Positions 2,597-3,588 are shown, numbered from the stretch's first letter. The stretch is 17,579 nt of DNA from a virus (IMGVR_UViG_2545824714_000011:1-17579), one strand, 5' to 3'. Notes: a model not told the origin generated them from the letters alone. Numbers and translations are program-made.

Positions 2597-2935
2597 ATGC
2601 TGAAGCAACGCCGTAATTTTCGTACCGGAACAGAACGCCACGCTAACCATTTCGCTACCAACGCATCACGCAGCAACATCCGCTACAGCCTGAGCGAGAC
2701 GCACGCAACACCTGATGGCCACACAGTAAAACAAATTGGCGAACACACCTGGCTAATTGAAAAAGCTGGAATCGTGGTTCACAGATGCCCACGCAATCCG
2801 TTTACCGGAAACCGCATTTTTGCACTAAGCAGCGGCGACAATCAGTTCGGACAGGATTTCACATTATACGAAGCACTTCGCACGGTTGATCGTCTGCTTC
2901 GCGGGCAAAGTTTTATTAAACAGACTGATTTATAA
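2597..2935 (+). CDS. Hypothetical early-operon protein
   Basis: 112-aa ORF starting 15 nt after the cox stop, with GAGG 5 nt upstream of the ATG. No recognisable motif. Confidence 0.5.
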   Translation: MLKQRRNFRTGTERHANHFATNASRSNIRYSLSETHATPDGHTVKQIGEHTWLIEKAGIVVHRCPRNPFTGNRIFALSSGDNQFGQDFTLYEALRTVDRLLRGQSFIKQTDL

Positions 2936-2945
2936 CAGGTGCGTT

Positions 2946-3224
2946 ATGATCAAAGAGCATGCACAAGGTGTATTTATCCGTTTTATTGATTTTCGCGGTG
3001 AACTGTTATTGCGCGCATCAGCTATTGATGGAGTTGTCCCATCAGAAAAAAATGCAGCTACTTACGTTTATCTGAACGGCACGCGCCTGACCGTAGAACT
3101 TCCGTACCAGACTGTACAAGGAATCATTAGCGAAGCTGAAAAAGCACGTAAGATTAATGGCGATGAACCCTATATCGAAATTATTTGTATGGATTCAGAA
3201 GCTGAAATTAAGAAAGCAGATTAA
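2946..3224 (+). CDS. Hypothetical early-operon protein
   Basis: The ATG at 2946 is preceded by AGGTG; 92 aa. The ORF-track start at 2886 overlaps the previous gene and is less likely. Confidence 0.45.
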   Translation: MIKEHAQGVFIRFIDFRGELLLRASAIDGVVPSEKNAATYVYLNGTRLTVELPYQTVQGIISEAEKARKINGDEPYIEIICMDSEAEIKKAD

Positions 3225-3235
3225 AGGGCGTTGCG

Positions 3236-3478
3236 ATGGGCAAAGAATATAAAACTCTCATTAACAAAGCACTTGAGCGTTTTTATTTTCGCTTAAGTGC
3301 ATCAGGTGCTCATGCTGAACGTGCAGCCCGTGACTCATTGACCAGGGCAATCCGGAGTCTGTATGACGTGGCTTTTTACGCTGATGATCTGGATGCACTT
3401 AACGAACTTTCCGAGCTGATCTGTGCCGCAGAATGCGGGGAGCATATTGAACCGTATAAGCTGGGGAATATTGCATGA
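3236..3478 (+). CDS. Hypothetical early-operon protein
   Basis: 80-aa ORF with AAGGG upstream of the start. Its stop overlaps the start of the next small ORF (ATGA). Confidence 0.45.
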   Translation: MGKEYKTLINKALERFYFRLSASGAHAERAARDSLTRAIRSLYDVAFYADDLDALNELSELICAAECGEHIEPYKLGNIA

Positions 3479-3588
3479 GTATATTTATCTCATGGCTTGT
3501 TCTGATTATTTCGGTGGTCTGCGCCATTGGGATTATGCAAATTATTCATTCAGTAAAAAAGATTGAACGCTTTTTCACTGGCGAATAA
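3475..3588 (+). CDS. Putative 37-aa single-pass membrane peptide
   Basis: Below the ORF-track length cut-off. Translation MSIFISWLVLIISVVCAIGIMQIIHSVKKIERFFTGE: one hydrophobic helix then a basic tail. Start overlaps the upstream stop (ATGA), suggesting translational coupling. Confidence 0.35.
   Translation: MSIFISWLVLIISVVCAIGIMQIIHSVKKIERFFTGE

Follow-up and report, generated by a model that had tools for sequence, protein, structure and literature searches.

Four small genes downstream of cox in a probably defective P88-like prophage: an early-gene cassette next to a deletion junction

The viral sequence IMGVR_UViG_2545824714_000011 (positions 1-17579; this stretch of 17,579 nucleotides is referred to here as the window) raises the question of what four small, tightly packed genes are doing between cox and the baseplate genes of a P2-family prophage, and what became of its replication, capsid and lysis modules. 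The initial annotation had these genes occupying the place of the modules and offered two origins for them, either relics of early genes like orf78 or orf80-83 of P2, or cargo. Our analysis indicates that the window very probably represents a defective P88-like (Xuanwuvirus, Peduoviridae) prophage inserted between btuC and ihfA, in which the four genes (ORF1-4) are relics of the early operon left beside a single deletion. What looks like a replacement of modules would then be a deletion scar, and the element one more decaying prophage of the P2 family, with nothing out of the ordinary in its layout.

The four-gene block and its products

ORF1-4 all lie on the plus strand, immediately 3' of a cox-like gene (2304-2582, plus strand) that is the first of the early operon and encodes a Cox-like excisionase/repressor of 92 residues, matching phrog_11533 (1e-54) and the Cox-like phrog_575 (1e-7), with weak similarity to P2 Cox. 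They comprise ORF1 (2597-2935; 112 residues, DUF4761 family), ORF2 (2946-3224, with its ATG at 2946; 92 residues, phrog_3800), ORF3 (3236-3478; an acidic protein of 80 residues, DUF4754 family) and ORF4 (3475-3588; a single-pass membrane peptide of 37 residues), and the four sizes and positions initially given for them are borne out. The gaps between cox and ORF1, ORF1 and ORF2, and ORF2 and ORF3 measure 14, 10 and 11 nt, a Shine-Dalgarno-like sequence is present for each of the four, and their GC content (40-46%) is shared with the C/cox region. Inside the block, we found no promoter-like or terminator-like signal above background. Where two ATGA stop/start overlaps had been reported, only that of ORF3 and ORF4 exists among the four ORFs; the other nearby 4-nt overlap is a GTGA, in which the stop of a 30-residue ORF (3676-3768, plus strand) meets the start of the baseplate spike gene V (3765-4346, plus strand; Pfam Phage_base_V on the identical source contig). 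This short ORF had been overlooked when cox was described as followed by the four ORFs only. Likewise, the distance of about 180 bp to the baseplate operon was correct, V starting with a GTG at 3765, 177 nt past ORF4, but the interval is not empty, as it carries the 5' part of a fifth early gene and a deletion junction.

On the minus strand, upstream of cox, lies the gene for a C-type immunity repressor (1899-2243; Pfam HTH_3/HTH_31, phrog_147 and, in the F344 prophage discussed below, an HTH annotation). Between C and cox, at 2213-2268, two near-palindromic elements of ~18-22 nt (GTGTACTTATAAGTACAC) sit 34 nt apart and are putative operators of an early/repressor promoter switch.

Nucleotide variation indicates that all four genes code for protein. 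Each ORF is represented by 26-56 distinct nucleotide versions among 88 loci; no version contains an in-frame internal stop, and both other frames contain stops in every one. Variable sites are most frequent at the third codon position (36/37/72 at positions 1/2/3 in ORF1, 25/23/52 in ORF2, 11/9/45 in ORF3 and 9/4/16 in ORF4). Among nine related loci, pN/pS lies well below 1 for ORF1-3 in nearly all pairwise comparisons, rising up to 0.5 for the ORF2-P88 pair, and ranges from ~0.2 to 0.9 for ORF4, where the differences are too few to judge. Read from these patterns, purifying selection is acting on all four genes. Five of the nine comparison loci (the F344 prophage and four phages, at pS ≤0.127) and at least 80 of 251 IMG/VR loci encode a DUF4754 protein with 100% identity to that of ORF3, and the comparison with phage Chuche yields one non-synonymous against 16 synonymous differences (pS 0.29); ORF1 and ORF2, which flank this invariant protein, vary at 78-95% identity. 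All four ORFs were found together in 78 of 80 IMG/VR loci.

ORF4 has the single-helix, membrane-peptide character initially ascribed to it, with a best 19-residue Kyte-Doolittle mean of 2.8 (residues 3-21) and a basic flank C-terminal to the strongly hydrophobic segment. Its reading frame is open in 80 of 80 IMG/VR loci (37 residues in 73, a tail variant of 45 residues in the other 7), and its ATG overlaps the stop of ORF3 in every one of them. The pairing extends to three prophages whose DUF4754 proteins are only 38-44% identical, each of which then has an ATGA-overlapping hydrophobic peptide; two of these are recognisably ORF4-like (MNIFISWLILIIAVFCAIGIVRIIDAVKDIESFFTGEKRRK and MSIFMSWVVLVLAIIFAIGIVKIITVIKAIEALFTGDKHHK) and the third is more divergent, and across divergent cassettes the peptide is better conserved than its DUF4754 partner. 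The exact ORF4 sequence occurs on at least 1000 contigs, with the existing annotation of a hypothetical or membrane protein. By this conservation, ORF4 is a genuine gene and, because its start overlaps the ORF3 stop, it is probably translated by coupling to ORF3.

Profile and structure searches, which the initial annotation had proposed, placed the products in families but assigned them no function. ORF1 matches Pfam DUF4761 (PF15958) over its full length with 234 bits and ORF3 matches DUF4754 (PF15946), also full-length, with 182 bits (2.8e-54), against a cut-off of 27 in either case; ORF1-3 fall into PHROGs of the 'unknown function' category and ORF4 is unplaced. Beyond these two domains, Pfam, NCBIfam and PADLOC gave no match for ORF1-4, the PADLOC defence-protein models none for cox either, and no Rfam family was found in the window. 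The cassette proteins are already catalogued as DUFs or hypothetical proteins. Those of ORF1-3 are restricted to prophages of Enterobacteriaceae, and DUF4754 forms only 21 representative clusters in 1.84 billion proteins. Neither single sequences nor profiles retrieved a credible relative from the PDB, and a literature search for DUF4761 or DUF4754 returned nothing, the papers on P88 and on Citrobacter phiSM not discussing them. AlphaFold predicts for ORF1 a sheet of five strands and a C-terminal helix, preceded by a disordered, basic N-terminal tail (approximately residues 1-30), and for ORF2 a PH-like/LytTR-like β-sandwich with a helix cap and an acidic C-terminus; no function could be assigned from the models. 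A phmmer match of the ORF1 tail to NADPH-cytochrome P450 reductase (E~2e-4) covers no significant stretch of a domain and drops to E~0.4 with the family profile, and we regard it as a compositional artefact of the basic, disordered tail.

A further frame in this region deserves mention. At 3100-3252 (+1 relative to ORF2, with an ATG at 3157), 42 of 42 distinct sequences have an open frame that overlaps ORF2 in its 3' third and ORF3 over 17 nt at its start, with the product ...MAMNPISKLFVWIQKLKxRKQIKGRCDGQRI*, and several database 'ORF2' proteins are frameshift variants that read into it from different shift points. Over this stretch, the third-position variability of ORF2 is 0.18, compared to 0.40-0.64 in the middle of the gene, and is also low at its 5' end. 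The pattern could reflect an overlapping gene, chance or a recombination boundary.

An early cassette shared with P88-like phages

The same genes stand in the same place in relatives that have kept their full complement. From position 2200 to 3750, the window is 99.9% identical at the nucleotide level to a prophage of E. coli F344 (NZ_OY754421) that occupies the same btuC-ihfA site; the 99.9% identity extends from C through the fifth early gene and is ~98% in the tail region. The F344 prophage differs in retaining 15,470 bp that are missing here and in having an intact tape-measure gene of 935 codons. There, int, C, cox and ORF1-4 are followed by a gene for 67 residues and more early genes, then by the replication endonuclease A, ParM-type partition genes, and portal, terminase, scaffold, capsid and head-completion genes, and finally by the holin, an M15 endolysin, a DUF2570 gene, R and S, before V is reached.

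A similar picture emerges from phage P88, to which positions 2633-3750 are 92% identical. Its counterparts of ORF1-4, namely gp04 (DUF4761), gp05, gp06 (DUF4754) and gp07 (annotated as 'membrane protein'), share 85%, 78%, 100% and 95% protein identity with them and follow in the same order just after cox, whereas the immunity module (int, C, cox) of P88 is of a different type and its operon does not, as here, end in a fifth gene joined to V. Six other P88-like Xuanwuvirus phages match at 88-93%, and the order cox, DUF4761, phrog_3800, DUF4754 and an ATGA-overlapped membrane ORF is found in P88, P88_4B11, 569R5, Chuche, 520873, Shae_phiSM and the F344 prophage. Even in two longer divergent contigs, whose cassettes are only ~40% identical, DUF4761 lies upstream, with cox further upstream; one of them is missing ORF2, which is thereby a dispensable member of the cassette. 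In every relative examined, the cassette follows cox, behind several immunity modules.

The four genes are, by sequence and gene order, part of a P88-like (Xuanwuvirus) early cassette, a widespread and uncharacterised early-gene module in an ordinary arrangement. Of 5,426 complete E. coli genomes, 1,410 have a match to the cassette DNA, and about a quarter carry the prophage family in whole or in part. Of the two origins initially considered, that of early-gene relics is the right one, ORF1-4 being the first genes after cox in P88 and F344, and the products have clear homologs among the ordinary early accessory proteins of the P88 branch. That they fill the place of the replication, capsid and lysis genes does not hold, as their position is that seen in intact relatives and the deletion starts only 155 nt past ORF4. 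The other origin, by which the four would be lysogenic-conversion cargo (morons) expressed in the lysogen, would fit small proteins with no annotated function and a narrow taxonomic range, but we judge it very unlikely: they share strand, 10-14-nt spacing and GC content with cox, have no promoter or terminator of their own, occupy the same place in all isolated P88-like phages examined, as well as in distant relatives, and match no PADLOC defence model.

The cassette occurs behind at least four different C/cox immunity types, and some phages carry extra small genes between cox and DUF4761. In the window, the mosaic boundary falls at ~2615-2633, within the 5' end of ORF1, and the first ~12 residues of the DUF4761 protein differ accordingly.

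The specific parentage initially suggested, with orf78 and orf80-83 of P2, found no support in phmmer, blastp or tblastn searches. In P2, cox is followed by orf78 and B, and in phage 186 apl is followed by cII, fil and dhr; orf78, B and orf80-83 of P2 and cII, fil and dhr of 186 thus share with ORF1-4 a position in the genome plan, as small genes that open the early lytic operon upstream of A, and ORF4 in particular lies where fil and dhr are found in 186. Nevertheless, phmmer and blastp comparisons with all early proteins of P2 and 186 gave nothing significant, no match to Fil or Dhr was better than E~1 in a database of 17 sequences, and tblastn of ORF1-4 against 50,697 phage records matched neither P2 nor 186 but P88-like phages only, with the exception of the C-terminal half of DUF4761 in phiT5282H and SEN4/SEN5. 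A blastp match between ORF3 and the C-terminal part of P2 gpB (E=0.003, in the same 17-sequence database) was discarded, with a probability of 0.6% for the ORF3-B pair in hhalign.

The deletion junction and related remnants

Alignment to the F344 prophage places the deletion junction at 3743-3750 (GCCTGATT), with the crossover inside GATT. The window tracks the 67-residue early gene as far as ...GACGAACGCCTGATT, after which comes GCGGAGGCTGTACGGTGA, the six final codons of S; relative to F344, 15,470 bp are absent (17551 to 33021 of the F344 locus, L002), with the remaining early genes, A, the ParM-type partition genes, portal, terminase, capsid and lysis genes, R and S. The 30-residue ORF at 3676-3768 is the chimeric product of this event, in which ~25 codons from the start of the fifth early gene (P88 gp08-like) run in frame into the six final codons and the stop of S, and it matches phrog_3459 over residues 1-27 of 67. 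At the junction, the GC content shifts from ~45% to ~58%.

For a query spanning the junction, the left half has matches ending at 3750 and the right half has matches starting at 3743 in more than 1,300 E. coli genomes, while not one of the 5,426 complete genomes has a match that crosses from one half to the other. Scans for the exact junction found none in species-representative genomes (two patterns) or in IMG/VR, and the sole metagenome match (L012) is a chance 24-mer on an unrelated contig of high GC content. The window itself is 100% identical to contig APZM01000059.1 of E. coli BCE006_MS-23 (GCA_000356885.2), the same junction is present in an independent Logan assembly of SRR488686 at 99.95% identity, and the chimeric product occurs on only two contigs in a collection of 15 billion proteins. 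Since two assemblies contain it, but only two contigs and none of the 5,426 complete genomes do, we consider the deletion real and limited to one strain or lineage.

The joined genes share a perfect 12-nt repeat, GAACGCCTGATT (L002 17540-17551 and 32986-32997 in F344; 3739-3750 in the window), which in the fifth early gene and in S alike encodes ERLI in frame; the S copy lies 24 nt upstream of the point where the deletion actually ends on the right. This homology may have nucleated the deletion, and a slip of 24 nt between CCTGATT and CCGGATT may then have resolved it or come after it.

Two other prophages, in E. coli L2_E1649 and in IMG/VR UViG_2778261203_000005, carry independent internal deletions that removed replication and head genes. 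Both keep int-C-cox, the four small genes and tail genes, and both differ from the window in their right breakpoints and in the extent of the deletion; that of E1649 additionally lacks V, W and part of J. Such remnants fit the usual decay of prophages, whereby the lethal functions of the lytic cycle disappear and the immunity end survives. That all three keep the block, two of them with the same left endpoint, could hint at selection or at a hotspot.

The left endpoint is shared within 3-4 nt between the window (3736-3750) and L2_E1649 (L004 6905-6925), corresponding to L002 17537-17551, and both break after ...GACGAACGCCTGATT, with different right endpoints (the end of S versus the head-completion gene L). 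The two prophages are independent and differ in SNPs and in an extra gene of 411 nt. A secondary nick site of the A protein was considered and rejected as the source of the shared endpoint: the nick in the P2 origin, GCGCCTC|GGAGTCC, is unlike CGCCTGATT|ACC, and neither right endpoint lies within gene A. Among 60 E. coli genomes sampled across the ranking, no other match ends at this site, which is therefore not a common hotspot.

Downstream of the junction, the tail genes V-W-J-I-H-G and FI-FII-E-T-U-D are kept together with ogr, while head, replication and lysis genes are gone and V is fused to the early operon. This combination invites the reading that the deletion was adaptive and yielded a headless tailocin (R-type-bacteriocin-like), with the small genes, for example the membrane peptide as a holin-like factor, standing in for the lost regulation or lysis. 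We give this extremely little credence, and it is largely refuted. The holin, the M15 endolysin and the DUF2570 gene (spanin region) lie within the deleted 15.5 kb, as do R and S, which serve in tail completion; ORF1-4 are just as they occur in intact phages equipped with a lysis cassette of their own; and the junction is restricted to a single strain or lineage. The tape-measure gene T (10597-13438, minus strand) is moreover frameshifted: compared with two intact references of 935 residues, gap positions and frame analysis place a 2-nt deletion near 12388-12393 that splits it into 351 and 607 residues. It is called as two genes on the source contig, and the split is supported by this assembly only, the second one ending before T. 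With lysis genes, R and S gone and the tape measure frameshifted, the element is best described as a decaying prophage rather than a tailocin.

Expression, possible roles and neighbouring genes

The sequence of events that we propose starts from an intact phage whose early operon would run from the early promoter Pe through cox, DUF4761, phrog_3800, DUF4754 and the 37-residue membrane peptide into further early genes and A. One illegitimate, microhomology-mediated deletion of 15.5 kb would then have fused the fifth early gene, at codon ~25, to the six final codons of S, and the four genes would have stayed as relics, which we assume to be passive, beside the retained immunity switch. From the layout and the biology of P2 and 186, ORF1-4 are expected to belong to the early operon and to be repressed by C, remaining silent while the repressor is made and being transcribed from the early promoter upon derepression. 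Only ~22 nt of S remain upstream of V, and no terminator-like site was found on the plus strand between ORF4 and V (3589-3764), so that V-W-J-I-H-G physically continue the early operon and early transcription would probably run on into them.

As to what the genes do in an intact phage, we suggest, with low confidence, that they encode small, non-structural early accessory proteins acting on host or phage processes at the start of the lytic phase and, equally tentatively, that DUF4754 and the membrane peptide probably function as a pair whose translation is coupled.

ORF4 resembles the membrane toxins of type I toxin-antitoxin systems in being short, hydrophobic and made of a single helix, and the cassette, or ORF4 alone, might have a host-directed toxic early function at the membrane or divisome, in a Fil/Dhr-like role or in the form of a type I toxin. 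Its placement behind Pe would then render the remnant dependent on C and favour retention of the immunity region, a scenario compatible with the genes being relics that gives them an active role in addition. The strongly hydrophobic helix with its basic C-terminal flank, its conservation beyond that of its partner, its location at the fil/dhr position of phage 186 and the retention of C and cassette in three independent remnants point this way. Yet ORF4 has no similarity to Fil, Dhr or any family in Pfam, NCBIfam or PADLOC, differs from type I toxins in being ATGA-coupled within an operon rather than forming a standalone locus, and neither a promoter-like site above background in front of it nor an antisense RNA family in Rfam was found; closeness to the immunity region explains the retention equally well. 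A toxic function thus appears rather unlikely to us, though appreciably less so than the cargo reading. No better odds attach to the broader, speculative proposal that the DUF4761-DUF4754-membrane-peptide cassette is a host-takeover or anti-defence module heading the early operon, with DUF4754 and its coupled peptide acting on a conserved host target. If it were true, toxicity in defective prophages would help to maintain the C repressor and with it superinfection immunity, and the shared left endpoint could reflect selection, or else a break hotspot downstream of the cassette. The value of the locus is modest and lies in a very common, strongly constrained cassette for which there is no known function, solved structure or literature; the highly constrained DUF4754 protein of 80 residues and the conserved 37-residue peptide form a defined target for host-takeover and anti-defence screens.

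Several other genes in and around the prophage may be of interest. Between the attachment-site end beside btuC and int, two overlapping small genes on the minus strand (192-494 and 484-867; GC ~41%, no PADLOC match) encode a protein of 127 residues with two Cys-x2-Cys zinc-ribbon-like motifs (phrog_4293) and a coiled-coil protein of 100 residues with a C-terminal hydrophobic helix and weak XhlA-like matches; this pair is possibly true cargo. A hexapeptide-repeat acetyltransferase (9362-9925, minus strand), with EpsC/CysE/WcaB-like matches that are all below family cut-offs, lies between the tail-fibre assembly gene and U on the strand opposite to the fibre genes, as it does in relatives, and is a candidate moron for the O-acetylation of surface polysaccharides. 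At the right end of the prophage, after ogr, an ORF of 46 residues (17439-17579, plus strand) belongs to the Hok/Gef family of type I toxins, an annotation also carried by the E1649 relative, and no Sok-type RNA scored high enough to pass the Rfam gathering threshold. Finally, the chromosomal flank includes the host gene selO, which is called as a pair of ORFs (126 and 351 residues) at 982-2417 in both independent assemblies of the source strain (L013 and L014); this suggests that it is a pseudogene near the prophage.
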